Position numbers and translations under genes: made by a program. The notes under the pieces are model-generated. The model was not told the origin of the DNA and ran no database searches. It worked only from the letters and a program-made list of their open reading frames with translations. A stretch of DNA of 64,000 bases, from assembly GCA_965205465.1 (NCBI GenBank), contig OZ242187.1, positions 2,454,244-2,518,243 on the forward strand, given 5' to 3'. Within the stretch, counting starts at the first letter, position 1; each line of letters starts with the position of its first letter. The stretch is from Candidatus Aldehydirespiratoraceae bacterium (GTDB taxonomy: Bacteria > Actinomycetota > Acidimicrobiia > Acidimicrobiales > Aldehydirespiratoraceae). Of this stretch, positions 6,224 through 24,175 are shown one piece after another.

Positions 6224-6296
6224 ACAGCGGGTCTACCGGGACTTTCGTGGTTTTGACAACTCTGCACGCCGCGCTGACGGGATTGTCGACTGGGAA

Positions 6297-6782: not shown

Positions 6783-7182
6783 GACAATAATGCATCAGTC
6801 GATCCGACACGGTGTCTCCGCAGTGCTGCCCGCTATTGCCTTGCGGATCCTCGTGGTCCTAAACGTAAGCAGACCCCGGCCACTAGCTTCTTGGCTGCGA
6901 TCGGGCGTATCCTTGCTGGTTATTCCCCGGTGTCGCCAATGCCTCGTGGCATGCGCCCGGGGTATTGACTTTTTGAGGCTTGGTGGGACTGGCGCTGGAG
7001 TGCGCTTAGAGAGTCAACGATCAGGCGGAGCGCATGCACGATGCCCGTCAAGCTGTGGGTATGGTGTTGGCGGAGTAACGGACTCTGGGCGGCGGCCGGG
7101 GGTTGAGCGGACGTTGGAGAGCGGGGCGCGGAATGAGAACGTCGTGCGATGTTGACTTGCCGATAGTGCAAGGGGAGCCGGT

Positions 7183-7629: not shown

Positions 7630-7662
7630 AGGCATAGCTATACTCCGACGCTAGGGGCAACT

Positions 7663-7983
7663 ATGACAAGAGAACCAGACGACACGGAATTCTTCAGCGT
7701 CGACGATCTACCAGACGCCGATCCAGCAGCAGTCGAAGCCGCCTACAACCAGATTGTGGCCCGCCACGTATTGGTGAACCTGCGCGCCGGCAGTGGTATG
7801 AGTCTCGAACAAGTCGCCAAGCGGCGTGGTGTGACCAGAGCCGCGGTGCACCAGCTTGAGATCCGGCCGCTCGGCAAAGTCCGGATCGCCTCATTGATCG
7901 GCTACCTGCAAGCGGTCGGCTACGACGTCGACGAAGACTGGGTCGCCCGAAGCCTTACCGCCGCTCTTCCAGCGCGTAGCTGA
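7663..7983 (+). CDS. XRE-family helix-turn-helix antitoxin-like protein, copy 1
   Basis: HTH core LRAGSGMSLEQVAKRRGVTRAAVHQLE. Paired with the upstream toxin-like gene. Confidence 0.65.
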   Translation: MTREPDDTEFFSVDDLPDADPAAVEAAYNQIVARHVLVNLRAGSGMSLEQVAKRRGVTRAAVHQLEIRPLGKVRIASLIGYLQAVGYDVDEDWVARSLTAALPARS

Positions 7984-7984
7984 G

Positions 7985-8157
7985 GCGCGCGCCTTGTTGA
8001 GCTGTTGGTAGCACCATCGCCGTGTGCGCTGCCCGTCGATCAGTTCGTCCAGGGAGTCCCGGAGCACCCAGGCGAATCGCTCGCGACCGTCTGGTTGCTC
8101 CTCGAACCAGCGAACAAGGCCCCGTAGGGCGGGGTCGGGTGACGAGGCCTCCTTCAA
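7985..8157 (-). pseudogene. Internal 5' fragment of a third NaeI-family endonuclease gene
   Basis: Encodes ...PALRGLVRWFEEQPDGRERFAWVLRDSLDELIDGQRTRRWCYQQLNK, equivalent to residues ~49-104 of the full genes. It is joined directly to the sequence that normally lies upstream of vsr. Confidence 0.75.
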
Positions 8158-8556
8158 GACAATAGTGGATCAGCCGATCCGACACGGTGCCTCGGCAGCG
8201 CTGCCCGCTCCTGTGTTGCGGGATGCTCGTGGTCCTCGAAATAACCGGACCGGCCGCGAGGTTCTTGGCTTCGATCGGGCGTATCCTTGCTTGTAACTCC
8301 CCGGTGTCGCCAATGCCTTCGTGGCATGCGCCCGGGGTATTGCCTTTTTCTGGGTGGGTCTGGGGAGATCGTCTGGTGACCGCGACTGTCACACCCCTGC
8401 TGTGTGCTTATGGCGTGGACTCTCCAGGAATTGATCGGAAGGCGCGAGGGGTGCAATTGCGTCTTGGTGATGGGCAGAGGGTGCGCGCCCAAGCCGACCG
8501 CAGCGGGCAGACTGAGGGTGTGACCGTTGGCTCCGCGATCTCGCTCTTCTCCGGCG
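8158..8556 (+). repeat. Third copy of the vsr-dcm2 spacer plus the first ~12 codons of the second methyltransferase (stub)
   Basis: Nucleotide homology by eye to 24662-24950, including GTGACCGTTGGCTCCGCGATCTC.CTCTTCTCCGGCGC (VTVGSAISLFSGA). Homology ends at about 8556. Confidence 0.7.
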
Positions 8557-8619
8557 CAGGCTGGCGGGGTGGAGCACGCACGCGTCGTAAGTGGAGTCGA
8601 ACGACACGGTGTGGGCCGA

Positions 8620-9093
8620 TCAGTATTCGAGGTCGAGGGATTGGGCTTCTGCGGTGAGTTCGTCGGCGATGGCGCGGCGTTCGGAGTCGTCGTCGTGCTT
8701 GTACTTAAGGAGATCGGCGAGCAGGACTCGGCGCCGGTTGCCGACTCGCCTATAGGGGATCTTGCGTTCCTCAAGCAGCTTCACGAGGTAGGGACGAGAC
8801 ACGTTGAGCAAGTCTGCAGCTTGCTGAGTGGTCAACTCGGCATGAACCGGCGCGACGGTGACGGCGTTGCCGTTGGCGATCTGGGCCAGGATGTCAACGA
8901 GCAGGCGGAGCGCATGCCCTGGAATCTCCAAAGTGGTGTCGGTGTCGTCTGCCTTGAGCGAGACCGAAGCGGCGTTCACCGTGGGGTGCCGACGGAGAAA
9001 CCGATCCAGGATGTCGACCGCGTCGGCCGCTTGGTTTGCTGTGGCCTCATCAGGGATCGCGAGCTGATGATCCAGTACAGCAGGGGGAGTCAT
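8620..9093 (-). CDS. Excisionase-type (HTH_17/MerR-like) DNA-binding protein, copy 1
   Basis: LTTQQAADLLNVSRPYLVKLLEERKIPYRRVGNRRRVLLADLLKY. Start chosen at MTPPAVLDHQ by comparison with copy 2 (29003..29476). Confidence 0.65.
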   Translation of the reverse strand: MTPPAVLDHQLAIPDEATANQAADAVDILDRFLRRHPTVNAASVSLKADDTDTTLEIPGHALRLLVDILAQIANGNAVTVAPVHAELTTQQAADLLNVSRPYLVKLLEERKIPYRRVGNRRRVLLADLLKYKHDDDSERRAIADELTAEAQSLDLEY

Positions 9094-9167
9094 CTTGTTA
9101 CCTCCTCTGACACCTGTGTAGCGAGTCGTGGACACGGTGAGTATGTCGATCGGCTACTTGGAGCATG

Positions 9168-9232
9168 TATCGTAAGTGATATTCAACACATTCGTAATAA
9201 AAATATTATTCAAACTAAATGAAATAGACGAA
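9168..9232. promoter_or_regulatory. AT-rich tract upstream of the HTH gene (candidate promoter/operator), copy 1
   Basis: GTAAGTGATATTCAACACATTCGTAATAAAAATATTATTCAAACTAAATGAAATAG stands out in an otherwise GC-rich context. It lies 75-140 nt upstream of ATG 9093, and a paralogous tract sits at 29551-29612. Confidence 0.4.
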
Positions 9233-9247
9233 TCACGGTTCCTGTTG

Positions 9248-9362
9248 TTACGTTGCTGCTTGGTAGGCGTCGAGTACGAGGGTGTGGAAAAGGTGCAGGG
9301 CATGCTCGGACAGCGGCATGGACTGGTACACCTCCGCAGTGAGACGTTCCGATGAGATCACC
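9248..9362. other. Patchwork scar: 3' end of a Rieske oxygenase gene (9248-9311) joined to a ~45-nt toxin-gene fragment (9318-9362)
   Basis: 9248-9311 is homologous to 29634-29697 (encodes ...SEHALH.FH.LVLDAYQAAT on the minus strand). 9318-9362 matches GACTGGTACACCTCCGCAGTGA.ACGTTCCGATGAGATCACCCGCG at 7539-7583 and 30878-30922. Confidence 0.65.
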
Positions 9363-10233
9363 CGCGAGACATCGGTCGAGGACTGTGACGAGGACCACCA
9401 CGTCGACCACCTGTTGCAACGTGAGAAAAGCCGACGCAACAGTCGATGGAACTTCCTCGGAACCTCGCGCTAGCCGTCCAGCTTTCCAACGAGCGGCGGA
9501 GCTGGCCGGCGCCGTCGCGGATCACGAGCCGGATGGCCTTGTTGTAGCCGATGATCAGGTTCCGGGCAGCTTGGGTGGTCCAGGGACCGGTGGGGTTGGT
9601 GGTGATCGCGGCGAGGTGCACTCGTCGGGTGTCGATCTCGATGAAGAACAGCACATGGAACCGCCGCATGGTGACGGTATCGACGCAGAAGAAGTCGGTC
9701 GCCACCAGGGCGTGGGCTTGGCTAGCAATGAACTCGCTCCAGCTCGGCCCGGTCCGGTTCGGGGTGGGCTCACGTCCGGCATCGCGCAAGATCTTCCACA
9801 CCGTCGACGCGGCAAGACGGTGTCCGAGACGGCATATCTCTCCATGGATGCGTCGGTAGCCCCAGGTTGGGTTCTCTGTGTCGAGGCGCAAGACCAGCCG
9901 ACGAAGCTCCGCTGGTGTGGGAGGGCGCCCGGTTCGGGGCCCAGGTGGTTGGGTCCAGTGGCGGGCGACGAGGTGTCGGTGCCAGCCGATCACGGTGGCC
10001 GGTTTCATGATCAGCATCACACGGGTAAGCCGCTGCCGGTCGAACGCACGCGAGAGCACGGCCAGGATGGTCCGGTCCGTCGGGGTGAACCTCGGCCGCT
10101 CGACTTGTCGCTGCAGGATGAGAATCTGATGGCGAAGGGCGAGGATCTCGGCGTCACGCTTGTCACCGGATACCAACAGCAGTCCGAGACGGGCTATCAG
10201 GAGCCGAAACAGGTGTGAGATAAGCGATGACAC
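9358..10233 (-). mobile_element. rve (integrase-core, IS3/IS481-superfamily) transposase gene, C-terminally degenerate
   Basis: ILALRHQILILQRQVERPRFTPTDR..., NPTWGYRRIHGEICRLGH, VATDFFCVDT...FFIEIDTRRVHLAAIT. The usual third-acidic-residue region is replaced by non-homologous sequence after ...VIRDGAGQ. No terminal repeats recognised. Confidence 0.65.
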
Positions 10234-10504
10234 GGCCGGTCACGGTACTGGTCGCCAACGCTGTGACCTGCAGCGACGCGTTCTCGGCACCCTCAGGCTG
10301 CAGCCGAGCGAGGTGACAGGATTTTCCAATACCGATCCATGCTCACGAACGCTGGTCATGGCTCCGACCTCTCGGCGATTGAAGCAGAGGGATGGAACCT
10401 CGACCAGACGGATTTCCAGCAAGAGACCGAGACGACAGCTGAGCCTGATGGCGAGCAGTACGCCCAGAGTGTCACTTATGCTGTCTACCTCTTTCGACGC
10501 TGAT

Positions 10505-11392
10505 CTACCCGCCGGCCCACTGTTCGAAGGCTGGACCGGCCGCTATGGGTCCGTCTGATCGATCAGATCGTGGGTGTACGCGGTCATTGACGGTAGCGAC
10601 TGTGGCCTCGTCAACGACTCCCGCGAGGGCATAGGAGGCGAGTTCGATTCCTATGCTTCGTGGTGTGGCGAATAGTTCGCGTACGTAGTGGAGCGCGCGC
10701 TGGGTTGTCTCTGCGGACCGGTCGTCACTGAGTAGGAGCTTCGTTGTTTGGGCCATGTCGACGATAGCCGTTGCGTCGAAGAGGCGGTACACATCGCCGG
10801 CATCCTTCGCGATCAGTCGTTCGGGGGTCTTGAGGCGTTCTCCGAGCTTGTGGGTCTTGGCGACCAGCAGCGCGGCGGCGCCGGCGACGTTGACGACAAT
10901 TCGGCGATTGTCACCCTCTTCGAGCGATGTGATCTCGAACGGGTCGAGGTCGACAACGGCGCCTTCAACTCCGTCGCTCTTGCGGGCAGCCGTCTTGCCG
11001 TGGCCGCGGGGGAGTCGAGCGCCACGTCGCCCTGCTCTGGGCACGAGCTGGGCGGGGACGATGAGATCGACCGGCACGGTGACGTCGCCGTCGAAGCCAG
11101 GGCGTTCGAATCGTTGCTGCCAGATTCCGGGCTCGCCAGGAAGCACGAATCCTGCTGCCGCCATGGCATCGCCGAGGAGAGGAGTATCGGCAAGCTGGTC
11201 AGGGTTGATGACGAGGTCAGCGTCGGTGGTGAAGGGCTGGTAGGTCGGTAAGCGGCCTTCGGTCCGCAGGTACACGGCCTGGGCGCCGATAAGCACGACT
11301 GCGTCGATGTGGGGCTGGAGGGCAACGAGCGCGTCGAGCAACACCCGTCGAGCTTCGATGTATTCGATCCGGGGTCTGGCGTTGTCGGTCAT
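10505..11392 (-). CDS. Nucleotidyltransferase-fold toxin-like protein (AbiEii-like)
   Basis: VVLIGAQAVYLRT...FTTDADLVI (G-x-x-A ... T-x-D-x-D-l NTase motif). Start ATG overlaps the stop of the upstream gene (ATGA at 11389-11392). Confidence 0.5.
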   Translation of the reverse strand: MTDNARPRIEYIEARRVLLDALVALQPHIDAVVLIGAQAVYLRTEGRLPTYQPFTTDADLVINPDQLADTPLLGDAMAAAGFVLPGEPGIWQQRFERPGFDGDVTVPVDLIVPAQLVPRAGRRGARLPRGHGKTAARKSDGVEGAVVDLDPFEITSLEEGDNRRIVVNVAGAAALLVAKTHKLGERLKTPERLIAKDAGDVYRLFDATAIVDMAQTTKLLLSDDRSAETTQRALHYVRELFATPRSIGIELASYALAGVVDEATVATVNDRVHPRSDRSDGPIAAGPAFEQWAGG

Positions 11393-12462
11393 GGTAGGCC
11401 CGGTTGAGCGGTGAGGGAGGTGGCTTGCCAGCGTGGGGCTTTGCGGCGCATCCAGTCGAGGAGGGCGTCGCCTTCGGCCGGCATTCGGCCGGGGCCGGTG
11501 AGGCAGTCGATTGCCGCTTGCGCAGGGGAGACGTAGATGGCGTTGTCCTTGGTCCAGATGCGTTCGAACACGATCTGATCGTAAGGCAGGGCTATGACAA
11601 CGTTCCCTCCATTTCGGACAGGACGCAGCCGCGCCCCCACCGCGATCCGTTCAGGGTCCTCGGCGTAGACGACTGCGATCTCGGGCGCGGCGACAGACAC
11701 CAGCGGCGAGGCAGCGAACGATCCGGTGATGGCCCATCGCTTCGTGTTGCTCGCGGCGAGATCTTCGCGGAACTGTTCGGGCCCGGCGGACGCGATCCAG
11801 TTGGTCGTCTCGTTGGAATCGAGCAACGAGTAGCCGGCGGTGATCTGGCCTAGCAGCGACTCCCATTCGACATGTTCAACGGGCCCTCGAGGTACACGGC
11901 TGATCAGCAGTTCGTCGGTCAGCGCACTCAGTAGCCTTGAGACGTAGCCAGCATCAGCGTCGATTGCATGGGCTAGCTCACTCACTCCGTAAGGGGGTTG
12001 CACTTCGGCGAGCGTGCGCAGCAGAGCCCAGGCCCGCGGGCCGCGAATGTTCAACCGCGGCACAGTCGGGGGAGACGGGTCGCGCTGTGCTCCCTCGGTG
12101 CGGAAGACAATCCCGGGTCGCTTCACTACGGCACTGACGTTGCCGGTTTGGTCGACGTAGCCGTATCCGATGTCTTCGAGAAGCTCGCGGCTGCGGGGAC
12201 TCAGCCATTCGCCGGCGATGATCGTGTCGACCTCCGGCTCAGGAAGCGCGACGACTTCGCGGGGCGTGAGATCTCTGCGGACAATAACGGTCAGCTCGCC
12301 TGAGACGTCGTCGGTTGAGGTGACCCGAATGACGCCGCCGTCGTCAGAGCGTCGACCAATCTCGATCTCCCAATCCGGTGGCGCGAGCGAGTCGAGCGAC
12401 TCTACGGTCGCGGCGAACAGACGTCGTGTTGCTTGAGAGACAGGTTTGCGTGCCATGAACAA
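11389..12462 (-). CDS. AbiEi-like winged-helix antitoxin/regulator
   Basis: wHTH segment YGVSELAHAIDADAGYVSRLLSALTDELLISR. Translationally coupled upstream partner of the NTase-fold gene, the canonical AbiEi-AbiEii order. Confidence 0.45.
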   Translation of the reverse strand: MFMARKPVSQATRRLFAATVESLDSLAPPDWEIEIGRRSDDGGVIRVTSTDDVSGELTVIVRRDLTPREVVALPEPEVDTIIAGEWLSPRSRELLEDIGYGYVDQTGNVSAVVKRPGIVFRTEGAQRDPSPPTVPRLNIRGPRAWALLRTLAEVQPPYGVSELAHAIDADAGYVSRLLSALTDELLISRVPRGPVEHVEWESLLGQITAGYSLLDSNETTNWIASAGPEQFREDLAASNTKRWAITGSFAASPLVSVAAPEIAVVYAEDPERIAVGARLRPVRNGGNVVIALPYDQIVFERIWTKDNAIYVSPAQAAIDCLTGPGRMPAEGDALLDWMRRKAPRWQATSLTAQPGLP

Positions 12463-12702: not shown

Positions 12703-12747
12703 CTCATAACCCGAACGTCGCGGGTTCAAATCCCGCCCCCGCCACCA
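12703..12747 (+). tRNA. Orphan 3' half of a tRNA-Met(CAU) gene (anticodon loop to CCA); not a functional tRNA, probable att core/scar
   Basis: CTCATAACCCGAACGTCGCGGGTTCAAATCCCGCCCCCGCCACCA comprises the CAU anticodon loop, CCCGA stem strand, T-arm GCGGG-TTCAAAT-CCCGC, acceptor strand, discriminator A and CCA. The sequence 5' of 12703 cannot pair (GCGAA where TCGGG is needed; no GGCGGGG acceptor strand). Confidence 0.75.
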
Positions 12748-13021
12748 CCAAAGCCTAAGTCCGAGCACACGCCCCGACTTGGGCTTTGCCGCGTTCAGGG
12801 CTGATGTTCTATTGGACTTTCTAAATGTGCGGTTCTGAAACGACCGTGTGCAGTCCCGGTGAATGCCTAACGCGCTGGCTCCGCTAGCAAGGTCCAACTC
12901 GGCGCCCCACACTCAACGGTGCTGAGCCTTGATCAGGTGCTAGCTACAAACCTAGCGCAGGATTCATCACTCCGTTAACCGTCGGTTGCTATCAGATGTC
13001 ATCGGGTGCTATCATTCAGAT

Positions 13022-15046
13022 ATGGAAGAGGACTGGCTAGGTACCGATGAAGCAGCTAATTATCTCCGGATGGGAAAAACGAAGCTCTACGAACTAACAC
13101 GGGCTGGACGCATCCCATCGAAACGCGTCAGCAAGAGGTGGATGTACGAGCGATCCGAGTTGGCGACGTGGATGTCTGGCAGTCAGGGGTTCGCGGACTT
13201 CTTCCTCAACACACCATTCAGCATCGAGGAGAACACTGGCCTGCGCGAACCACAGCGTGACGCTTGGACGCAAGCCGCGTCTTACTTCGCGCGTGGCGGC
13301 CAGAAGGCGATCGTTCAGTTGCCGGTGGGGTGTGGCAAGTCGGGTGTTGCGGCGATCTTGCCCTTCGGGATTTCAAGAGGGCGAGTGCTGGTCATCTCTC
13401 CGAACCTCACCATCAAGGAGGAGCTCTACCGGGCACTCGACATCACGAATCGCCAGAAGTGTTTCTGGCACCAGCGTGGAGTCCTTGCTCCAGAACACAT
13501 GAGTCATGGTCCGTACGTATGCACCCTCGACACGGGCAACCTGTCGGTCTGTGAGAAGTCGCACATAGTTGTCACCAACATCCAGCAGTTCGGCACCGAC
13601 GCTGAGAAGTGGCTCAATAGGTTTCCTCAGGACTTCTTCGACCTGATCGTCGTTGATGAGGCTCACCATGGGGCGGCCACGAGCTGGCAGCGTGTATTCG
13701 AGCGGTTTCCCGACGCGAAGATCGCGAATCTGACCGCTACGCCTTTTCGGAGCGACCGGCAGGAACTCGATGGTGACCTTGTGTTTCGCTACTCGTTCAA
13801 GAGCGCAAGCCTCAAGGGCTACCTCAAGAAGGTGAAGGCGAGTTATGCGGCGCCGACGGAACTCACGTTCACGATGGAAGGCGAGGAACGGACTTTCACG
13901 CTCGATGAGGTTCTCGCGATGAAGGAGGAGGATTGGTTCAGCCGCGGGGTGGCCCTCTCGACTCCATGCAACGTGTCGATCGTCGACAACAGCCTGGAGA
14001 AGCTTGAACAGCTACGGCAGACGGGAACCAAGCACCAGCTCATCGCCGTCGCATGCTCAATCAACCATGCAAGACAGGTTCGTTCGTTATACCGAGAGCG
14101 GGGCTATGAGGCCGGTATCGTGCACAGCAATCCGCAGCGGCCGCAAGATGAGCAGGCTAATGACGAAGTCATGCGAGACCTCTACAACGGCATTCTGGAT
14201 TGCGTTATTCAGGTCCAGATGCTTGGAGAGGGCTTCGACCACCCGAAGCTCAGTGTCGCCGCAATCTTTCGACCGTTTCGGACGCTGGCGCCGTACATCC
14301 AGTTCGTAGGCCGGATCTTGCGGGTTGTCGTTCAGAACGATCCGAATCACCCGGACAACTACGGCCATATTGTGACCCACATCGGCATGAACCTCGACGA
14401 GCTACTGAAGAAGTTCCAGATGTTCGAGAACGACGATCAACGGTTCTGGGAGGAGGTGACTGGGGGAGTCGAGCCTGATCCCCCGAAGGAGGTTCTCGGC
14501 GGCAGCGCGCGGATGAAGTTGCATGAGGACATGGTTGTCAGCAACGAGATCGTGGAGCAGTTGTTCGAAGAGGACTTCATCACCGCTGAAGATGCGGAGA
14601 TTCGCGAGGACCTCGAAAGGAAGCTGGAAGCTCTCGGCCTGGATCCTCGGTTGGCGGAACAAGTCGTCCAGAAGAGCAGGGCGGCTGACATGAACCCATC
14701 AGTGACGCGAGCGGCGCAACCGTTCAGCAAGCTCCCGGCCAAGCAATGGAAGGAAGCACGGAAGCGACTAGACGAAGAGGCCCGGCGAACATCCAAGATT
14801 CTCCTGAATCGAGTTGGCTTGCGTCCCGAAGGTGTCGAGATCCCGAGACAGCTGAGGCCTGAAATCGGCGCGACGAACAACTCGATTGCCGCTTTGATGA
14901 TGGTGAACATGGCGGTCGGTTCTACCATCGACGACGAGCGAAAGAGACCGGAGTGGTCTTTCGAAGAGTTCGTTGAGGCCATCGAGGCGCTACCCGAAAT
15001 ACTCGACAGTCTCGTGCGTCAACTGAAAGCAGCCCAAAATGCCTAA
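13022..15046 (+). CDS. SF2 DEAH-box helicase (Res-like) with N-terminal excisionase-type HTH
   Basis: HTH: LGTDEAANYLRMGKTKLYELTRAGRIPSKRV. Helicase motifs I QLPVGCGKSG, II LIVVDEAHH, III NLTATPFR, and C-terminal lobe QVQMLGEGFDHPKLS ... FVGRILR. Start taken at ATG 13022 (track ORF opens at 12986). Confidence 0.8.
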   Translation: MEEDWLGTDEAANYLRMGKTKLYELTRAGRIPSKRVSKRWMYERSELATWMSGSQGFADFFLNTPFSIEENTGLREPQRDAWTQAASYFARGGQKAIVQLPVGCGKSGVAAILPFGISRGRVLVISPNLTIKEELYRALDITNRQKCFWHQRGVLAPEHMSHGPYVCTLDTGNLSVCEKSHIVVTNIQQFGTDAEKWLNRFPQDFFDLIVVDEAHHGAATSWQRVFERFPDAKIANLTATPFRSDRQELDGDLVFRYSFKSASLKGYLKKVKASYAAPTELTFTMEGEERTFTLDEVLAMKEEDWFSRGVALSTPCNVSIVDNSLEKLEQLRQTGTKHQLIAVACSINHARQVRSLYRERGYEAGIVHSNPQRPQDEQANDEVMRDLYNGILDCVIQVQMLGEGFDHPKLSVAAIFRPFRTLAPYIQFVGRILRVVVQNDPNHPDNYGHIVTHIGMNLDELLKKFQMFENDDQRFWEEVTGGVEPDPPKEVLGGSARMKLHEDMVVSNEIVEQLFEEDFITAEDAEIREDLERKLEALGLDPRLAEQVVQKSRAADMNPSVTRAAQPFSKLPAKQWKEARKRLDEEARRTSKILLNRVGLRPEGVEIPRQLRPEIGATNNSIAALMMVNMAVGSTIDDERKRPEWSFEEFVEAIEALPEILDSLVRQLKAAQNA

Positions 15047-15272
15047 GGGAAGAACACCGTCACTCATCGGAGCATCGTTAGGACGGCCCAACCAGGTCAC
15101 GTGCGGCCGAAAGTCGGCTTGTAGCCGTTGCCACGAGGACATCCTGAAGGGAGCGACCTGTTACGACGTCCCACGGGTCAACAAGCCGCACGCTGCCACG
15201 CGAAGGTTCTGTCAGGCATGTTTCGACGACGTCCTGGAGCAAACGAGGCGTGACCTCGACAGCTTAGGCTGA
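15039..15272 (+). CDS. Small zinc-ribbon protein
   Basis: 77 aa with C-x5-C-x2-C-H ... C-x16-C-x2-C (CGRKSACSRCH ... CYD ... FCQACF). Its ATG overlaps the helicase stop by 8 nt. Confidence 0.5.
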   Translation: MPKGRTPSLIGASLGRPNQVTCGRKSACSRCHEDILKGATCYDVPRVNKPHAATRRFCQACFDDVLEQTRRDLDSLG

Positions 15273-15276
15273 ATCG

Positions 15277-15426
15277 ATGACGCGACGAGAGAGTCCGCGG
15301 ATGCTGGTGGTGGCGGAACTTCAGCAGCACTGGGTGTCGCAAGTGCGCGCCTGGAACGAGCTGCTCCAACTCTCGGCGTCGAGCAGTCGCGAGCCAGACG
15401 ATGACAACAGGCTTCCTCTACTTTAG
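15277..15426 (+). CDS. Possible 49-codon micro-ORF (below the track's 60-aa cutoff)
   Basis: ATG 15277 lies 4 nt after the zinc-ribbon stop. MTRRESPRMLVVAELQQHWVSQVRAWNELLQLSASSSREPDDDNRLPLL*. About 70% G/C at third positions by hand count. Overlaps the next start by 26 nt. Confidence 0.25.
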   Translation: MTRRESPRMLVVAELQQHWVSQVRAWNELLQLSASSSREPDDDNRLPLL

Positions 15427-16648
15427 CGACGACTACCGCCACGGCTTCTACATCGAAGCACGGGAGCGGTTCACCGACGTCCTTCCGACCGCGCCAAAAA
15501 TCGAGGAACTTCAGATAGCGCTAATTGCCCTAGACCCCCACACGATTGACTTCTCGGCAGTGATGCGGCGGGGCCGAAAGGTTGCATCGTTAAAGTGGTT
15601 GGTCAGCTTCGAAGCAATCGAACCCTTCAATCCCCCGCTCAGAATCTCGGATCTGATCAGCCGACTCGATCCGAGCGTAGGGCGGCGCCTCACCGCCACG
15701 GTCGGCTCGAAGGGATCCCAACTCGCTCAGTACTCATGGACGCAGGTCAGGGATGCGATCGACTCCATCCAGGGCGATGGGTACCTTATGGCCAGAGAAC
15801 AGGCGCTGAAGTATAGGCGACCTCTAGCTACAGCGACTTCAGCCGAACCAGTCGTCGAGTATGAACACGACGCGGTTGGCGTAGCGCTCGATATGTCAGA
15901 TATCGACCGCAAGCCAATATTGGACCGGTGGACTGGGAGTAACTTGGCGCCGTTTCTCACGGGCCTCGACGAGTTCAGGCTTCTCGAAGACAAGATGGTC
16001 GACTTCGACGCCACCGTGTTCGGGGACTGGGCGAGGGAATCGAGTGCTCTGGTCGGTCTTGCGACCTTTCAACAGCGCGGGCGGAAACTGACGATTATCA
16101 ACGTCAATCGGACTGACGTAGAGCATGCCCTCGGGGTTGATCTCGTTTACTACAACCATCAATTCGACGCCTACGTGCTCGTCCAATACAAGAGGATGCA
16201 GAAGCACAACACAACAGGTCACGAGTATCGGCCAGATAAACAACTTGAGAAGGAGTTGGAGAGGATGCGATCCCTGAGTCGATCAGAGACAGCGGCATGC
16301 AATGCGAACGAATACCGGCTCAACGATTCAGGCATGTACCTGAAGCTGTGCCCCTCGACCTCTCCGTCGCTCCAACCTTCTGGCCTCATCCGAGGTATGT
16401 ACTTGCCGTTGGAGTACTGGGACCTGGCGCTCGCCTCAAGCTTGACGTTGGGTAAGCGAGGAGGCCGAGCAGTGACATTTGACAACATCGGTCGGTATAT
16501 GTCGAACTCTCTGTTCGTGAAACTGGTCGCATCGGGCTGGGTCGGCTCACGGGGGCTGACATCCGCCAACGTAACCGAAATCGTGCGGGCGTCACTATCC
16601 GGCAACAAGTCGGTCATGCTCGCTGATGCGCGCGCGGTTGATGCGTGA
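15401..16648 (+). CDS. Unknown 415-aa protein with a PD-(D/E)xK-like (restriction-endonuclease fold) core
   Basis: TDVEHALGVDLVYYNHQFDAYVLVQYKRM at nt 16121-16192: E241, D247, Q262-x-K264. The ~230-aa N-terminal region has no motif I recognise. Confidence 0.45.
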   Translation: MTTGFLYFSDDYRHGFYIEARERFTDVLPTAPKIEELQIALIALDPHTIDFSAVMRRGRKVASLKWLVSFEAIEPFNPPLRISDLISRLDPSVGRRLTATVGSKGSQLAQYSWTQVRDAIDSIQGDGYLMAREQALKYRRPLATATSAEPVVEYEHDAVGVALDMSDIDRKPILDRWTGSNLAPFLTGLDEFRLLEDKMVDFDATVFGDWARESSALVGLATFQQRGRKLTIINVNRTDVEHALGVDLVYYNHQFDAYVLVQYKRMQKHNTTGHEYRPDKQLEKELERMRSLSRSETAACNANEYRLNDSGMYLKLCPSTSPSLQPSGLIRGMYLPLEYWDLALASSLTLGKRGGRAVTFDNIGRYMSNSLFVKLVASGWVGSRGLTSANVTEIVRASLSGNKSVMLADARAVDA

Positions 16649-16682
16649 TGATGCCGAGAACCTACGTAGGAACTGACTTAGC

Positions 16683-18316
16683 CTGGATCCACCGGTGTGG
16701 TGAGGTGTTGGGGGTTGGCGCGTCCACCAGAAAGGCCTCCTGACATGGGAGAATGCTGTTAACGACAACGGTCATTCTGGCCATGTGAGGAGGCACTTCC
16801 TGTGAGCAGCATATCTGGTGGGATTGATGGGGTGGAGGTTCGTTTTGATGAGGGGTCTTTGGTGGGGGATGCGGGTTTGTTGTTGGCGGGCACGGTGATG
16901 GATCGTCTGGGGCTCGAGGCGATGCTTGATGAGGTGGTGCGCCCGCCGGGGTCGGGGCGGGGGTCGGGGGCCAAGGCGTTGTCGTTGGTGGCGTCGATGC
17001 TTGTGGGGGGTTCGTTTATCGACGACGCGGACAGGTTGCGGGCCGGGTCAACAGCTCAGGTGCTGCCGTTTAGGCCGGTGGCGCCGTCGACTCTGGGAAC
17101 GTGGTTGCGGTCGTTCACTTTCGGGCATCTGCGTCAGTTCGACCGCGCCAACGAGTTGGCGCTTGGCCGGGCGTGGTCTTTGGGTGCGGCGCCGGCTGTT
17201 AAAGAGATGACGCTGGATTTGGATTCCACGGTGTGTGAGGTCCACGGTCGCGACAAACATGGCACCGCTTATGGCCACACCAAGGTTCTGGGTTATCACC
17301 CGTTGGTGGCGGTGCGCGACGACACCGGCGAGTTCATTCATTCCCGTATGCGGTCGGGTTCGTCTCAGCGCGGTCACGGGCGGTTCGTGTCTGAGACCCT
17401 GGCCCGGTTGCGTCGCTTAGCACCCGACGCGGAAGTCACCGTGCGCGCCGACGCCGGGTTCTTCTCCTATGAGTTGTTGGACCTCATCGAGACCCACAAG
17501 GCGTTCTGGTCGTTCACGATCCCCCAAAACGCCATGGTCAAAACAGCTATAGCAGCCATAGACGACAAAGCCTGGAAGCCCATCGCCTACACCCGCGGCG
17601 GCCAAGCCCAGGTCGCTGAGACCACCATCAAAACCGGGCCCCGATCCCGCAGCGCCGAACCCCGCGAACTACGGCTTGTGGTGCGACGTACCCGCCTCAC
17701 CGGCTCCCAAGCCGAACTGTGGCCCGACTGGCGCCACCACTGCTTGGTCACCAACCGAACCGACCTCGACACCGAAACCGCCGACACCTACCACCGAGCC
17801 CACGCCCGAGTCGAACTCGCCATCAAAGACCTCAAAGACAACGGACTAGCCCACTGCCCCTCAGGGAACTTCTTCGCCAACGGCGCCTGGTTGGCCTGCG
17901 CCACGCTCGCACACAACCTCGCCCGCTGGACAGCCCGCCTCGGCCACACCCAACACCCCAAACACCTCACCATCGCGGCCACCGTCCGCAACCGGCTCCT
18001 GTCGCTGCCCGGCCGGCTCGTCAACCACTCAGGCCGCCACATCCTACGCCTGCCCCTCAACTGGCCCTGGAAACACACCTTCACCACAGCGCACCAACAC
18101 CTACACAACCTGCCCCTGCTCATCTAAACACCCACCCCCCGGGGGCCGGCACCCCCAGCACACACCCCAACGCCACCAACCCAACCCAACCCAACCCCCA
18201 ACCCCGACCCTGCACGCCCCAACACACCAAACCCGGCGTGAAACCCCCCGCCCGACCCCAACCCGCCACCAGCCCGCGAATCCCGCGCTCACCAAAGGCC
18301 AATCGGTGGATTCAGG
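16683..18316 (+). mobile_element. IS1380-family insertion sequence A (1634 bp)
   Basis: Ends CCTGGATCCACCG ... CGGTGGATTCAGG are imperfect inverted repeats. Flanked by CTTAG at 16678-16682 and 18317-18321. Confidence 0.8.
16802..18127 (+). CDS. IS1380-family DDE transposase (IS A)
   Basis: 441 aa: FDEGSLVGDAGLLL..., LDLDSTVCEVHGRDKHGTAYGHTKVLGYHPL, VRADAGFFS, YHRAHARVELAIKDLKD. Confidence 0.85.
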   Translation: MSSISGGIDGVEVRFDEGSLVGDAGLLLAGTVMDRLGLEAMLDEVVRPPGSGRGSGAKALSLVASMLVGGSFIDDADRLRAGSTAQVLPFRPVAPSTLGTWLRSFTFGHLRQFDRANELALGRAWSLGAAPAVKEMTLDLDSTVCEVHGRDKHGTAYGHTKVLGYHPLVAVRDDTGEFIHSRMRSGSSQRGHGRFVSETLARLRRLAPDAEVTVRADAGFFSYELLDLIETHKAFWSFTIPQNAMVKTAIAAIDDKAWKPIAYTRGGQAQVAETTIKTGPRSRSAEPRELRLVVRRTRLTGSQAELWPDWRHHCLVTNRTDLDTETADTYHRAHARVELAIKDLKDNGLAHCPSGNFFANGAWLACATLAHNLARWTARLGHTQHPKHLTIAATVRNRLLSLPGRLVNHSGRHILRLPLNWPWKHTFTTAHQHLHNLPLLI

Positions 18317-18321
18317 CTTAG

Positions 18322-19934
18322 CCTGGATCCACCGACGCGGTGAGGCTTGTGGGGTTGGCGCGTCCACCAGAAAGGCCTCCTGATCTGCGACGATTGTGAT
18401 GTCAATATGCACGTTCGTCTCAACAACAGGAGGCACTTTTTGTGTCTGTATCTTCGCGCAGTTTGGACCGGTTCGCAACGACCTTCGATCATGAGGGCCT
18501 GGTCGCCAACGCGGGCCTGATCCTGGCGGCCACGCTGATGGACCGTTTGGGTCTGCTGGGGCTGATCGAGCGGTGGGTGCGCACCGGCTCGGCGAACCCG
18601 GGCCGAAAGATTCTCACGCTGGTCGCGGCGATGCTCGCTGGCGCCACTCACATCGATCATGTCGAGATGCTGCGCGCGGGCGGCACCGGTCGGGTGCTGG
18701 GGTTCACCCCGATGGCGCCCTCCACGGTGGGGTCGTTCTTGCGGACCTTCACGTTCGGCCACGCCCGCCAGCTCGAAGCGGTGCTGGCGCGCACGCTGGC
18801 GCGTGCCTGGGGACTAGGCGCAGGCCCCGGCGACAAGCCGCTGACGGTCGATCTGGACTCCACGATCTGCGAGGTCCACGGCAAGCACAAGGGCGGCGCC
18901 GCGTACGGCTACACCAAGGTGCTGGGCTATCACCCGCTGCTGGCCGCACGCGCCGACACCCGCGAAGTGCTCGCCGCCCGCATGCGCAAAGGCTCCGCGG
19001 GCTCGGCGCGAGGAGTGGTGCGATTCGTCGACGAGCTCGTCGCCAACCTGCGACGCGCCGGGGCCACCGGGCCGACCACCGTACGCGCCGACTCGGGGTT
19101 CTGGTCCCACAAGCTGATCGACCGCCTCGACGCCCACGACGTCAAGTGGTCGATCACCGTCGCGCTCGGATCCGCTGTGCGCGCAGCGATCCAAGCGATC
19201 GGCGACAACGCCTGGGCCGACATCGCCTACACCCAAGGCGGCCGCGCCCAAGTCGCCGAGACCCAATACGTCACCGGCCGCGGCAAACACGAGCGCACCG
19301 TTCGCCTCGTGGTGCGCCGCACCCGACTCGCCCAGGGCACCCAACAACAGATGTGGCCCGACTGGCGACACCACGCGTTCATCACCAACACCGACCACGA
19401 CACCGCCGCCGCTGATGAGTTCCACCGCGCCCACGCCGTCGTCGAGCTCGCCATCCGCGACCTCAAAGAAGGCTCCGGGCTCGACCACGTCCCCTCAGGC
19501 CACTACGGCGCCAACTGCGCATGGCTCGCCTGCGCAGTGCTCGCCCACAACATCGGCCACTGGACCGCGCTCCTCGCCGGCGCGCCGCCCGCCACCAACC
19601 ACTCCCGACGCACCCGACTCGTCGCCCTCGCCGCCGTGCTGGTGAACCGCTCAGGCACACCCACCCTGCGATACCCCGCCCGCTGGCCCTGGGCAACACA
19701 ATTCCACACCACACTCAAAGCCCTGCGAGCCCTTCCCGGACCCTCCGGCTAAACGACACCACCCGGAACTGACGCCCCCACACAAACCCAGCGTCAACAA
19801 CCCAAACCACACCCCCACACCTAGCCCAACACGCCCAAACACACCAAACCACACCCCCAACAACCCGACGCGACCCCAACCCGCCACCAGCCCGCGAATC
19901 CCGCGCTCACCAAAGGCCAATCGGTGGATTCAGG
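18322..19934 (+). mobile_element. IS1380-family insertion sequence B (1613 bp), diverged from A
   Basis: Same terminal sequences as IS A. Flanked by CTTAG at 18317-18321 and 19935-19939. Confidence 0.8.
18442..19752 (+). CDS. IS1380-family DDE transposase (IS B)
   Basis: 436 aa, collinear with the IS A transposase but clearly diverged: FDHEGLVANAGLIL..., VDLDSTICEVHGKHKGGAAYGYTKVLGYHPL, VRADSGFWS, FHRAHAVVELAIRDLKE. Confidence 0.85.
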   Translation: MSVSSRSLDRFATTFDHEGLVANAGLILAATLMDRLGLLGLIERWVRTGSANPGRKILTLVAAMLAGATHIDHVEMLRAGGTGRVLGFTPMAPSTVGSFLRTFTFGHARQLEAVLARTLARAWGLGAGPGDKPLTVDLDSTICEVHGKHKGGAAYGYTKVLGYHPLLAARADTREVLAARMRKGSAGSARGVVRFVDELVANLRRAGATGPTTVRADSGFWSHKLIDRLDAHDVKWSITVALGSAVRAAIQAIGDNAWADIAYTQGGRAQVAETQYVTGRGKHERTVRLVVRRTRLAQGTQQQMWPDWRHHAFITNTDHDTAAADEFHRAHAVVELAIRDLKEGSGLDHVPSGHYGANCAWLACAVLAHNIGHWTALLAGAPPATNHSRRTRLVALAAVLVNRSGTPTLRYPARWPWATQFHTTLKALRALPGPSG

Positions 19935-19993
19935 CTTAGGCGAGTGCATCTCTGCCCGGCACAACAGGCCGTAGCGCAGTGGGGCAGTAGGCG

Positions 19994-20485
19994 ATGAGCG
20001 CGGGACCGTCCAGGCGAGGGAGGGATCGCGGGAAGTGGTCGGAGCCGGATGTACCGCACAAGGGATGGAACTGCGTTGACCTCGAGGACCTCGAGGATCT
20101 CATCGGGACTTGTGAGATGTGCGAAACTCAATCCATTCGGTACGTCCACCACATGGAACACCCCGACTACCCTGACGTGCTCGGCGTAGGACGTGTGTGC
20201 GCTGGACACATGGAGGAGGACTACGTAGGGGCGCGGCAGCGCGAGAAGCAAGCCGTCTCCCTTGCGAGCCGACGATCGAGGTGGATGACCACGGAGTGGA
20301 GAGAATCTCAACGGGGCAATCGCTACATCAACCGCAATGGCTTCAACATCGTCCTGTACGAGAGGTTCGACGGCTGGGCATATCGGATAAAGCAGAGCGA
20401 TTCAGAGCACTCGTGGTATGGCACGCGATACACCACGCTCGCCGAGGCAAAGCTCGCGGCATTCGAGTGCTTCGTCGCTCTTTGA
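19994..20485 (+). CDS. Hypothetical CxxC...CxxH zinc-binding protein
   Basis: 163 aa: GWNCVDLEDLEDLIGTCEMCETQSIRYVHHMEHPDYPDVLGVGRVCAGHME. No family recognised. Confidence 0.45.
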   Translation: MSAGPSRRGRDRGKWSEPDVPHKGWNCVDLEDLEDLIGTCEMCETQSIRYVHHMEHPDYPDVLGVGRVCAGHMEEDYVGARQREKQAVSLASRRSRWMTTEWRESQRGNRYINRNGFNIVLYERFDGWAYRIKQSDSEHSWYGTRYTTLAEAKLAAFECFVAL

Positions 20486-20881
20486 CCGCCGTTGCCTACC
20501 AACTTCCGTCCCCCCGCTAGAAGTACAACTGCATGACCAGCTGAAGCGGCGCGGGACTAACGCTGGTACCGTGTTTCGAACAGAGATTTTCGCTATTTCC
20601 CCTAGTGAGTAGTGCGAGGGCATCGACACCAGCACGTTAGCGGTCTGTTCGCCGGGCTTGGGGCTGGGCTAGAAAGCTGTGACACCGTCTGTGAGGTCGC
20701 AGCGGTATGTCATCGGCTTCACCCACAGGGGCATCATCGCTAAGGTCTGGCTATCTGGCGGCGGTGGGGTAGAGCTGCGTCATGGGACGACGCTTGTCGA
20801 GCCACAGGTCAACGCAGCAATTTGTTCGACGCGTAATTAGGATCACTTGACAGATCTCGCGGTTGCACCTGTAATTGACTC

Positions 20882-21469
20882 GTGGCTAAGGGTAGTGCGA
20901 AGCAGCGAATCGGAGAATTCCTGCTACAGAACGTCGGCAAGGTCGTCACGGGCCATCAGCTACAAGAAGCCGCTGGCCCCAACGTTACTGAGTGGGCACG
21001 GCGGGCTCGGGAGCTGCGCAACGAAGAGGGCTGGGAGATCCATACCCATCGGGACGACGTTCTGTTGAAGCCGGGCGAGTACCGCTTGGCCTCCGTGCCT
21101 CCGGCAAAGGGCCCCAAGAGCGGGTCTCGACCACTGTCTGCCCGCATTCGTGCCGAAGTGCTGTCACGGGACGGTCACACATGCCAGATGTGCGGCGCTG
21201 CCGCGGGGGACGTCGGTGAAGATGGACGGCCCGTACGGATACATATCGACCATATCAAGGCCAGAAGCCTCGGGGGATCTGACGATCTCTCCAACCTCCG
21301 AGCGCTGTGCAGCACATGCAATGAGGGGGCCAAGAACCTGACCCAAGAACCTCCGAGCGCAACATGGCTGCTCTCTCAGGTGCGCCGCGCTTCCATAGGC
21401 GACCAGCGGGCGGTGTTGGGCTGGTTACAGGCTAAGTTCCAACAGCGAGAGCATTCCGAGCAGACCTAG
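20882..21469 (+). CDS. HNH endonuclease with N-terminal winged-helix-like domain
   Basis: GHTCQMCG ... IHIDHIKARSLGGSDDLSNLRALCSTCNEGAKN gives the HNH catalytic H/N/N plus two CxxC pairs. GTG start. Confidence 0.75.
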   Translation: MAKGSAKQRIGEFLLQNVGKVVTGHQLQEAAGPNVTEWARRARELRNEEGWEIHTHRDDVLLKPGEYRLASVPPAKGPKSGSRPLSARIRAEVLSRDGHTCQMCGAAAGDVGEDGRPVRIHIDHIKARSLGGSDDLSNLRALCSTCNEGAKNLTQEPPSATWLLSQVRRASIGDQRAVLGWLQAKFQQREHSEQT

Positions 21470-21851
21470 AGCGTTGCTCCGATCAGTCGGTCCAGCAACG
21501 AGCATCCTGTGCCCGACCTATCACGGTCGGATTCAGCGCGTGGGTCAGATCGGGTCGATCGCGCGTTTGCGTCAGGGGCCAAGCGAGCCTGTTGGTAAAG
21601 GTCGGGGGTCGAGTAGGGCGAAGCTCTGCTCCGAGGATCGCTGTCGCTGCGACTCGTTGACGCGGGGTCTGCGGGGCGGTGTCACACCCCTCTGTCATCG
21701 TTGGGTTCTCGATTTCGGTGAGTTCTATGACGTGCCAGATGCGATTTCCCCGCAAGGCCGGTGTTGAGATAGTTGATCCAATACCAGGCTGCTCGGGTAT
21801 CGCCCGGCTCACAGCTGTCGGCTACTACTCTCCGTGAAAGGGACACCAACC

Positions 21852-22922
21852 ATGGCCTATAGAACCATCGACCTCTTTGCAGGAGCGGGCGGGCTCACCG
21901 CAGGTTTCTGGCTGGCTCGCGACAGCGCAGGAGTTGAACTCTACGATCCTGTCTTCGCGGTGGAGCACGAGCCGGCGGCTGCAGCCACCTACAAGGCCAA
22001 CTTCGGCATACACGTCCATGACGGGGACATCGAGTTCATGGACCCCAGGGTGTACCCCAGCGCCGACATCATCATCGGAGGGCCGCCCTGTCAGGGATTC
22101 TCTCCGCTGGGCCGTGACCGCGACCCCGACTCAAAGGCGGTACTCAACGGATTGTGGGAGCACTTCCTTGCCGCAGTCGTGCAGGTGCGACCGCGAGCGT
22201 TCGTGATCGAGAACGTCCCTCAGTTCCAGCGCTCCGCCCAGTTCAACGAGCTATTGGACCGGATGGCTAATCACCCCCTCCTGTCGCAGTTCGGCTGCGG
22301 CTACGGGGTACTGAATGCCGCGGACTACGGGGTGCCGCAGACCAGGAGACGGGGCATCTTCATGGCGGTCTACAAACAGTCCGTGCCTTGGCCTCCTCCG
22401 CCGACGCACGGCGACTCCCCGATGTTCGAGCAGCCGTATCGCACAGTGCGCGACGCGATCTCCGACCTGCCGGCCGAACCCACCACGGATCAACCCACCA
22501 CAGCCGACGACGGCTCCCAGGATCTCCATATCCGACGCAACCCGCGGGAAACCTCTCTGCAGCGTTACCGGGCTATCCCACCGGGAGGGAACCGCTTCGA
22601 TCTGCAGCGCAATCGGCCCGACATCACGCCGGCCTGCTGGCTCAACAAACCCACGGGCACTACTGACGTGATGGGTCGGATGTGGTGGGATAAACCCGGG
22701 CCGACGATACGGACCGAGTTCTTCAAGCCTGAGAAGGGACGTTACCTACATCCTGAGCACGACAGGCCTATCACCCACCGCGAGGCCGCTCGGCTCCAGA
22801 GTTTCCCCGACACCTTCATCTTTGAAGGATCCAAGATCGAGATCGCTCGCCAGATCGGGAACGCTGTCCCGCCAGTGCTCGCCCGCGAGATCGCCCTGCA
22901 CCTCGCGCGCATCCTCGAATAA
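21852..22922 (+). CDS. DNA (cytosine-5) methyltransferase, copy 2 (intact), presumed cognate of the NaeI-family enzyme
   Basis: Motifs I DLFAGAGG, IV GGPPCQGFS, VI FVIENV, VIII GVPQTRRR, X QIGNAVPP. Convergent with the endonuclease gene. Confidence 0.85.
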   Translation: MAYRTIDLFAGAGGLTAGFWLARDSAGVELYDPVFAVEHEPAAAATYKANFGIHVHDGDIEFMDPRVYPSADIIIGGPPCQGFSPLGRDRDPDSKAVLNGLWEHFLAAVVQVRPRAFVIENVPQFQRSAQFNELLDRMANHPLLSQFGCGYGVLNAADYGVPQTRRRGIFMAVYKQSVPWPPPPTHGDSPMFEQPYRTVRDAISDLPAEPTTDQPTTADDGSQDLHIRRNPRETSLQRYRAIPPGGNRFDLQRNRPDITPACWLNKPTGTTDVMGRMWWDKPGPTIRTEFFKPEKGRYLHPEHDRPITHREAARLQSFPDTFIFEGSKIEIARQIGNAVPPVLAREIALHLARILE

Positions 22923-22966
22923 CGCAAGAATCCCGGTGGTCGACGCCCCGATCGACCTAGCTGCCC

Positions 22967-24103: not shown

Positions 24104-24175
24104 ACCGCGGGTCTACCGGGACCGTCGTGGTTTTGGCAACCCTAGACACTGCACTGCCGGAATGCCGACTGGGAA

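Follow-up and report, generated by a model that had tools for sequence, protein, structure and literature searches.

Enzymes in which a sensor of the PUA superfamily is fused to a PD-(D/E)xK or HNH nuclease are established as modification-dependent; their genes usually lie away from methylase genes, and PUA-PD-(D/E)xK fusions are reported as rare (PMC6765204). MspJI, whose catalytic motif is D-x20-QAK, has the same domain order as the 415-aa protein that is one subject of this work (PMC3479186). The other subject is a gene pair, hereafter the cassette, made up of a superfamily 2 (SF2) DEAH helicase gene and the 77-aa zinc-ribbon gene behind it. Both lie in a stretch of 64,000 nt (the window) from Candidatus Aldehydirespiratoraceae bacterium (contig OZ242187.1, positions 2,454,244 to 2,518,243), where four open reading frames (ORFs) on one strand code for the helicase, the zinc-ribbon protein, a 49-codon product and the 415-aa protein (ORF 15401-16648). 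The original prediction, made from the sequence alone, took these four ORFs for a single helicase-nuclease array. Our comparison with loci from genomes, plasmids and metagenomes (labelled by L-numbers) shows that they are not one conserved unit; two independent mobile modules lie side by side. With confidence a little above even, we read the region as an autonomous cassette juxtaposed with a stand-alone, MspJI-like modification-dependent nuclease, and not as one system.

The separation is seen from both sides. On the nuclease side, tblastn at 80 genome loci carrying family members 26-46% identical found neither the cassette helicase nor the zinc ribbon adjacent at any of them (0/80); three weak helicase-type matches lie 4-5 kb off, inside other large genes. 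All-against-all clustering of the ORFs within 6 kb at these loci gave no shared partner, returning only anti-sense shadow ORFs and lineage-specific Pgl genes, and Pfam assignments of 36 co-directional upstream genes were heterogeneous (OEP, LeuA, MMPL, HsdM, HsdS, AbiEii, HEPN, an HD + HD_assoc phosphohydrolase, UvrD). Several plasmids carry a gene of the 415-aa family, never beside the cassette, and its neighbours there are Gabija (GajA 731 bits, GajB 593 bits), DUF6119, a pair of ATPase and S8 protease genes, and HipA. Members at 47-50% identity stand near DUF6119 in an island of Type I restriction-modification (R-M) and abortive infection (Abi) genes, near ArdC-like genes or near a UvrD fragment; Type I R-M, AbiE and Pgl genes are found beside others.

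On the cassette side, the nuclease is absent in 12 contexts (L088-091, L092-094, L095, L096/097, L099, L100, L106/107, L108/109, L110-112 and L116), which include MOBQ conjugative plasmids. What follows the zinc ribbon in these contexts is an unrelated co-directional gene (259, 237, 189, 154 or 59 aa), an insertion sequence (IS), a convergent gene, or nothing near. The helicase of L116 is 88% and its zinc ribbon 70% identical to those of the window, and no trace of the nuclease is present; the homology ends at 15272, the stop codon of the zinc-ribbon gene. Helicase and nuclease are adjacent only in the window, L081, L082/083, L084 and L104/105, where the helicases are 88-92% and the nucleases 68-86% identical, and in L081 an IS splits the helicase while the nuclease gene is intact. 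Hence, neither the single array nor the dedicated helicase-nuclease partnership of the original prediction is upheld: the cassette occurs without the nuclease, the nuclease occurs without the cassette at all 80 genome loci, and a pair as similar as that of L116 lacks it. Helicase and 415-aa gene do co-occur in one narrow clade, as the partnership would have it, but nowhere else, which largely refutes that proposal.

Candidates for another partner of the nuclease were also rejected. DUF6119 is near the gene only in L085-087 (6190-7884), L114 (8134-9789) and L080 (11960-13471). These are three unrelated contexts, across which it is placed upstream, downstream with a 4-nt overlap, and on the opposite strand, and the DUF6119 proteins concerned have no PADLOC match. 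A Gabija-like ATPase + UvrD pair was seen with the gene at just four loci, all of them bona fide Gabija.

The 415-aa protein itself has no match in Pfam, NCBIfam, PADLOC or PHROGs; a Pfam search of 48 members of the family at E<=5 was also empty, and a sequence search of the PDB with the family profile (phmmer/hmmsearch) gave chance matches only. An exhaustive profile search placed 1,959 representative clusters (clustered at 50% identity) in the family at E<=1e-3 and 1,042 at E<=1e-30, compared with 139 clusters in a word-indexed search. Nearly all of the matches listed are full-length, at ~420-450 aa. Genome matches span at least 10 phyla, and the phage search found no phage member. In an alignment of 48 homologues at 26-88% identity, E196, E241, G245, D247, Q262, Y263, K264, R265, R306 and K315 are invariant. 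The E241/D247/Q262-x-K264 core that had been proposed (nt 16121-16192) is thus borne out, and E196 can be added to it.

Structure prediction is consistent with two domains. The AlphaFold2 model has a mean pLDDT (predicted local distance difference test) of 81, with ~90 for the N-terminal domain, and the nine best Foldseek matches of aa 1-~145 against the PDB are all ASCH-type PUA-like barrels (probability 0.77-1.0, template-modelling (TM) score ~0.5), with 2p5d at probability 1.0 and the ZmASCH entries at 0.77-0.99. Thus, part of the N-terminal ~230 aa, previously described as unrecognizable, is predicted to fold as an ASCH/PUA-like barrel. For aa 148-415, modelled separately, the mean pLDDT is 68, with 76-94 in the core. 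PD-(D/E)xK proteins dominate the Foldseek list of this second model, in agreement with the nuclease fold foreseen in the original prediction: Hjc resolvases (0.98 and 0.92), the SPARDA nuclease subunit (0.82) and further DpnI, BsmI, EcoRV, HincII, SwaI, PvuII and MunI. A fold search of BFVD gave just weak ASCH and DUF3850 matches and was uninformative. Given that the fold-match lists are enriched for ASCH and PD-(D/E)xK proteins and that the motif is invariant, the predicted two-domain assignment is reasonably secure at the fold level.

In this predicted architecture, the protein is closest to the MspJI family. Both are single polypeptides (~415-460 aa) with a PUA-superfamily reader at the N-terminus and a PD-(D/E)xK domain at the C-terminus; both have Gln substituted for the second acidic residue (D-x20-QAK in MspJI, D-x14-QYK here); and neither has a conserved methylase partner, as judged here from the 80 loci. 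However, the 415-aa protein has no sequence or profile match to MspJI (PADLOC mREase_IV, PDB phmmer/hmmsearch), MspJI and AspBHI are not among the Foldseek matches listed for it, its sensor is ASCH-like and not SRA, and it has two additions, a helical linker at aa 148-215, which is conserved, and ~70 aa that extend the C-terminus. Membership of the MspJI family proper (MspJI, AspBHI, LpnPI) was therefore rejected, there being no sequence, profile or closest-structure relation, and Mrr membership was rejected as well. The fusions described by Lutz et al. 2019 (the EVE-HNH enzymes TspA15I and VcaM4I, and YenY4I with EVE-DUF3427-PD-(D/E)xK) likewise combine an N-terminal PUA-like sensor with a C-terminal nuclease, although here the PD-(D/E)xK domain is fused directly, without DUF3427, and none of the 48 family members has a Pfam EVE, ASCH or YTH match, even at E<=5.

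The features of the modification-dependent class that the protein does have are a PUA-superfamily sensor (at the fold level), an intact catalytic motif in the same polypeptide, and no obligatory methylase partner. On account of the folds, the invariance of the motif and a sporadic distribution over many phyla, in defence islands and without a methylase partner, we regard the 415-aa protein as most likely a stand-alone modification-dependent restriction endonuclease, Type IV-like. Modification dependence and a DNA substrate are attributed to it by analogy, because PUA-nuclease fusions behave in this way (PMC6765204; PMC3479186). In such an enzyme, the N-terminal barrel would detect incoming DNA by a modified base, and the C-terminal domain (D247-x14-Q262-x-K264) would cut the duplex near that base. 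The enzyme would probably be oligomeric, as MspJI is, and would need neither ATP nor a cognate methylase.

The cassette helicase carries the SF2 motifs and the N-terminal helix-turn-helix (HTH) that had been noted before: Pfam assigns HTH_17 at aa 5-52 (nt 13034-13177), ResIII at 74-243 (13241-13750) and Helicase_C at 326-435 (13997-14326), with the Walker A motif GCGKS at ~13328-13342 and DEAH at 13655-13666. GCGKS, DEAH, motif III and motif VI are invariant among its relatives (14-sequence alignment, mean column identity 82%), and the C-terminal region (14327-15043, ~240 aa) is strongly conserved and has no family match. The helicase search gave 4,020 homologues at E<=1e-3; in each of the best 120, the length is within 658-726 aa, the identity is at least 73% and the same three Pfam domains are present. 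The overlapping homologue of the zinc-ribbon gene (77-88 aa) stands behind the helicase in every readable cassette locus (L081-084, L088-100, L104-111 and L116), down to 55% helicase identity, and among these loci are a MOBQ plasmid of Paracoccus (16.6 kb) and a plasmid of Rhizobium. On a Rhodococcus plasmid whose helicase is 40% identical, there is only a degenerate counterpart without the Cys pairs.

The zinc ribbon of the original prediction is a real gene, since its substitutions concentrate at third codon positions (e.g. 30 vs 11 and 8 in L084) and its cysteines are invariant in the alignment (C28-x2-C31, C41, C58-x2-C61); an N-terminal PSLIxxSxGRP motif is also conserved. Its database relatives form 46 clusters, all stand-alone, small (77-88 aa) and without names, and Pfam, NCBIfam, PADLOC and PHROGs returned only a sub-threshold Cytochrome_C7 match. 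Through the 8-nt overlap, it is predicted to be translationally coupled to the helicase. Neither protein has a detectable nuclease domain in Pfam, PADLOC, NCBIfam or further profile and structure-database matches.

DNA homology between the window and cassette loci elsewhere starts at ~12995-13034 and ends at 15174-15272, where the zinc-ribbon gene ends. About 40 nt before the ATG are conserved across 10 cassette contexts as TTGACn + TGnTATCAT-n3-TGnTATCAT; in the window, a -35-like TTGCTA (12986-12991) precedes the tandem TGnTATCAT, whose second TATCAT is at 13010-13015, and the ATG follows 6 nt on. Given that the ATG stands only 5-7 nt past the second TGnTATCAT in the window and nine other cassette loci (alignment A6), the cassette mRNA is probably leaderless, and the tandem repeats may be an operator for the HTH_17 domain. 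The earliest possible start of the helicase ORF is a TTG at 12986. Cassette identity is 66-92% over chromosomal and metagenomic loci (Acidimicrobiales and Polyangiaceae among them) and 55% on alphaproteobacterial plasmids; a metagenome scan with the single helicase sequence as query gave 6 loci, and an alignment query would reach further. The helicase and the zinc ribbon are always paired, the homology has sharp boundaries, the promoter is conserved and the pair occurs without the nuclease; from these sequence comparisons, we conclude that the cassette behaves as an autonomous, horizontally mobile two-gene unit.

The company that the cassette keeps is varied and speaks for a defence-island gene. 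It adjoins an IetAS-like pair of ATPase and S8 protease genes in L100, methylase and HNH genes in L110 (a small plasmid), and a ThiF/ubiquitin-like pair with an ImmA-type peptidase in L116; in L111, a plasmid island, a gene for a Shedu nuclease stands two genes further downstream. Two genes lie upstream of the cassette variant in L092-094 (4567-5614); the product of one (162 aa) weakly matches phosphoribosyltransferases, and that of the other (183 aa) has no assigned family. The distant phage relatives of the helicase are replication-module helicases.

No named system fits the set, as the original prediction had also held: PADLOC, Pfam and NCBIfam gave no HamA, HamB or other system-specific match, and the literature searched contains no description of an HTH_17-helicase defence system or cassette. 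The helicase core resembles the ResIII family (RadD 64.9 bits, the EcoAI R subunit 50.6 bits, XPB-II, PDB 3h1t, and phrog_16 at E 2.7e-44), but the scores are far under the family cut-offs, identity to the phage helicases is 24-26%, and the cassette alone has the HTH_17 fusion, a conserved C-terminal stretch of 240 aa and an obligatory zinc-ribbon partner. RadD (NCBIfam NF053632) was rejected, its 64.9 bits coming from the C-terminal lobe only, against an equivalog cut-off of at least 720 bits. A Type III Res/Mod enzyme was also rejected: ResIII is present, but the helicase has no nuclease-domain match, and in the window and most cassette loci it has no methylase beside it. Hachiman shares the concept of an SF2 helicase beside a PD-(D/E)xK-type nuclease and nothing beyond it; the gene order differs, Pfam and PADLOC give no DUF1837, HamA or HamB match, and the helicase-nuclease pair is confined to one clade. 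As for SauUSI, the best PADLOC match of helicase aa 178-435 is mREase_IV (PDLC03659, E 3.5e-14), a model of 945 positions that we take to be SauUSI-like, and some SauUSI relatives split motor and sensor. The cassette helicase differs from it in having HTH_17, a unique C-terminal region, a zinc-ribbon partner and usually no adjacent nuclease, and a SauUSI-type system was rejected because the match covers the helicase region only and no ORF has a PLD or DUF3427 match.

The sequences suggest that the helicase and the zinc ribbon would form a DNA-bound, ATP-driven SF2 translocase, with the HTH and the GRP/zinc-ribbon partner supplying the DNA contacts (the zinc ribbon may contact DNA or protein). 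Defence, anti-defence and mobile-element maintenance are all possible roles. In the scheme that we favour, the nuclease gene would have landed directly behind the cassette in one narrow lineage, and the two IS copies would have inserted downstream of it later.

Several observations weigh against this reading of an independent cassette and a stand-alone modification-dependent nuclease. ASCH proteins are mostly linked to RNA, and the N-terminal domain of the 415-aa protein has no invariant pocket residues. The fold matches have weak E-values (2e-3, 3e-2) and TM scores of ~0.5-0.6, and the C-terminal domain model has the mean pLDDT of 68 given above. The host island encodes C5 methylases, so an enzyme directed at 5-methylcytosine (5mC) would need a different specificity; because several such methylases are present, the target is probably not 5mC in their sequence contexts. 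In the window clade, moreover, the three genes are co-directional, with a gap of 29-128 nt and no terminator-like site before the nuclease, and the boundaries of the trio are kept in at least four flanking contexts while the nuclease drifts to 68% identity. Because the gap is short and contains no terminator-like site, transcription from the cassette promoter probably continues into the nuclease gene in this clade, and the kept boundaries could reflect functional coupling of cassette and nuclease, which we nevertheless regard as doubtful.

The arrangement of the trio is also the starting point for a rival in which helicase, zinc ribbon and nuclease of the window clade are one ATP-dependent restriction system, either a split counterpart of SauUSI or McrBC, or a pair like Hachiman, with the helicase translocating and licensing or delivering the PUA-nuclease. 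Besides the shared strand and the short gap, this explanation can call on the collinearity of the trio in the window, L084, L104/105 and L081/082 despite differing flanks, on the mREase_IV match of the helicase, and on the existence of SauUSI-like systems whose specificity domain is a separate protein (PMC6765204). We consider it unlikely, however, given the nuclease-free L116 with its homology ending at the zinc-ribbon stop, the 12 contexts with the cassette alone, the nuclease alone at 80/80 genome loci and on plasmids, the L081 locus with a disrupted helicase and an intact nuclease, and the lack of any HamA, HamB, PLD or DUF3427 match in Pfam and PADLOC. It is quite unlikely that plasmids and genomic islands have in the cassette a new, autonomous module of immunity or counter-immunity which can dock downstream effectors, and which here, with a captured PUA-nuclease, would carry out ATP-driven modification-dependent restriction as a SauUSI/McrBC analogue, split and made of unrelated parts.

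Alternatively, the cassette might be a general motor or sensor with a variable 3′ effector slot, the 415-aa nuclease being one interchangeable cargo. Differing co-directional genes do follow the zinc ribbon: one for 259 aa at ~+33 nt (L106), 237 aa at +127 nt (L092), 154 aa at ~+20 nt (L111), 59 aa at +3 nt (L108), and the 415-aa family in the window clade. Yet a co-directional gene downstream is missing in at least six contexts (an IS in L095, distant unrelated genes in L096/097 and L099, convergent genes in L100, L110 and L112), the alternative downstream proteins have neither a family match nor mutual similarity, and the nuclease family is overwhelmingly cassette-free; we find such a slot improbable. 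An RNA-directed or structure-specific nuclease, for example one that fuses an RNA binder of ASCH type with an Hjc-like nuclease for junctions or flaps, and that would act in abortive infection or DNA repair, would agree with the best structural neighbours of the 415-aa protein, which are ASCH proteins and Hjc Holliday-junction resolvases, and ZmASCH is described as a ribonuclease (PMC5615036). Against it stand the sporadic spread over many phyla, in variable islands with R-M, Gabija, Pgl and IetAS-like genes and no housekeeping synteny, and the domain order and D...QxK motif, which fit MspJI-type enzymes; accordingly, this possibility too is given little weight.

The coordinates of the features are collected in Table 1. 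The tight packing of the four co-directional ORFs was reproduced as originally described: the helicase and 77-aa ORFs overlap by 8 nt, 4 nt separate the latter from the 49-codon ORF, and this in turn overlaps the 415-aa ORF by 26 nt. The G+C content at third codon positions (GC3) is 0.68-0.72 across all four, and the value of 0.72 for the 49-codon ORF agrees with the ~70% noted earlier.

Table 1. Features of the cassette, the nuclease gene and the genes downstream of them (window coordinates).
Feature	Coordinates	Strand	Evidence
Cassette promoter	12986-13021	+	promoter scan; kept in 10 cassette loci
674-aa SF2 DEAH helicase	13022-15046	+	Pfam; 14-sequence alignment
77-aa zinc-ribbon protein	15039-15272	+	alignment; follows helicase in full-length cassette loci; codon-position substitutions
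49-codon ORF, judged not to be a gene	15277-15426	+	frameshifted in L104, no counterpart in L084, spacer gone in L082
415-aa protein, N-terminal domain, predicted ASCH/PUA-like beta-barrel (aa 1-~145)	15401-15835	+	AlphaFold2, Foldseek
415-aa protein, helical linker and predicted C-terminal PD-(D/E)xK domain	15842-16648	+	conservation, Foldseek
Two tandem related IS copies	16674-19939	+	transposases 16802-18127 and 18442-19752; repeats D15, D17, D18; IS-free L104
163-aa CxxC protein	19994-20485	+	77% identity to the 163-aa gene of L104
HNH gene	20882-21469		365 nt upstream of C5 methylase

For the 49-codon ORF, the comparison speaks against its being a gene, as had been supposed. Its two halves fall in different frames in L104 (87% nucleotide identity), L084 has no counterpart, and in L082 the ~100-nt spacer that holds it is deleted, which leaves 29 nt between zinc ribbon and nuclease. 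The 49-aa product has no match in Pfam, NCBIfam, PADLOC or PHROGs. We conclude from these alignments that it is not a gene and sits in a dispensable spacer of ~100 nt.

The IS-free locus L104 also clarifies what lies downstream. Its order is helicase, zinc ribbon, 416-aa gene, 87-aa ORF and 163-aa gene, and its DNA alignment joins window positions 16644 and 19933 with ~200 nt between. Since this alignment bridges the two positions, the insertion of the tandem IS pair took place between the nuclease and CxxC genes, as originally proposed. In L081 (4105-7748, on a 4.8-Mb contig), the IS that splits the helicase is 88% identical to the second copy of the window (18317-19939); therefore, the same IS family has been active in related genomes and has repeatedly hit this locus. 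The ancestral six-gene unit (13022-21469) that was suggested for the region, on the other hand, is not supported. L104 lacks the HNH gene, and no other cassette or nuclease locus examined carries the 163-aa gene. The family of the latter, which has no usable match in Pfam, NCBIfam, PADLOC or PHROGs, has members on 48 plasmids, of which 34 are conjugative, and in 4 phages. In L117 and L118 (3989-4474), from plasmids of Rhodovulum and Leisingera, the gene is third after WYL and WGR genes, with SbcCD-like genes upstream on both and the bacteriophage exclusion (BREX) genes brxL and pglZ downstream on the Rhodovulum plasmid only. A WGR gene upstream of it, as on these plasmids, was looked for in L104 and the window and not found. 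Thus, the 163-aa gene is an ancestral downstream neighbour in the window lineage only and is otherwise an independent plasmid and phage family.

The setting in a defence island, also part of the original prediction, was confirmed: the window encodes a NaeI R-M system, Vsr, IetA with an S8 protease, and C5 methylases around the four ORFs. The attachment (att) scar claimed directly left of the cassette was found as well, at ~12705-12747, as an initiator-tRNA-like 3′ part (anticodon loop, T-arm, acceptor, CCA) whose 5′ half is absent; only the T-arm supports it, through a weak Rfam match, and Rfam and ARAGORN found no intact tRNA or other RNA gene at the region. The C5 methylase downstream of the HNH gene faces a NaeI-family endonuclease. 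These two genes belong to a direct segmental duplication (3836-9388 vs 21714-31245, in blocks 89-99% identical), which gives the window two C5 methylase genes (4080-5042; 21834-22922) and two NaeI-family endonuclease genes (5087-6223; 22967-24103), and the helicase/nuclease/IS/HNH block sits between the two copies. Next come a Vsr mismatch endonuclease (24176-24661) and a third C5 methylase (24588-26003), such that several host 5mC systems adjoin the putative nuclease for modified DNA.

The IetA ATPase (26042-27025; PADLOC 243 bits) and the S8 protease (27571-28695) are consistent with an IetAS pair. Pairs of an AAA ATPase and an S8 protease also occur in L100 with the cassette (3419-6323) and in L114, plasmid pAMI8, with the 415-family gene (3190-6531), the two ATPases being 34% identical. 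At the edge of the island are a 5-hydroxymethyldeoxyuridine DNA kinase (HMUDK_hel, E 1e-87) and a MazG/MazG_C pyrophosphohydrolase (1557-2642 and 2610-3515). HMUDK-type kinase and MazG genes belong to thymidine-hypermodification pathways, usually in phages. Between an IS3-like transposase and the att scar, two minus-strand genes (10505-11392 and 11389-12462) overlap by 4 nt; their products, one of 357 aa with an IclR-type winged helix and one of 295 aa without a family match, could be a toxin-antitoxin or Abi-like pair.

It should also be noted that, at six Streptomyces loci (L057, L063, L065, L066, L068 and L072), a homologue of the 415-aa protein lies directly beside PglW-PglX (BREX type 2). 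It occupies ~9350-10800 of each locus, is ~481 aa long and can be aligned over the nuclease half only; the L057 scores are 1560 bits for PglW and 1669 bits for PglX. Modified progeny phage are restricted by Pgl, and we know of no nuclease or effector of Pgl that has been identified as acting against it. Given this adjacency, the family member beside PglW-PglX is a candidate Pgl effector.

More generally, the locus is a caution that operon-like tightness in a defence island does not amount to a multi-gene system without co-occurrence data. What emerges is a new, large candidate family of Type IV-like nucleases and an uncharacterized but strikingly conserved helicase/zinc-ribbon cassette, which brings its own promoter and is common both on small conjugative plasmids and in defence islands. 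If it is modification-dependent, the 415-aa family would add a large group (~2,000 clusters at 50% identity, in many phyla) to the Type IV repertoire, and such nucleases are useful as reagents for mapping modified bases.

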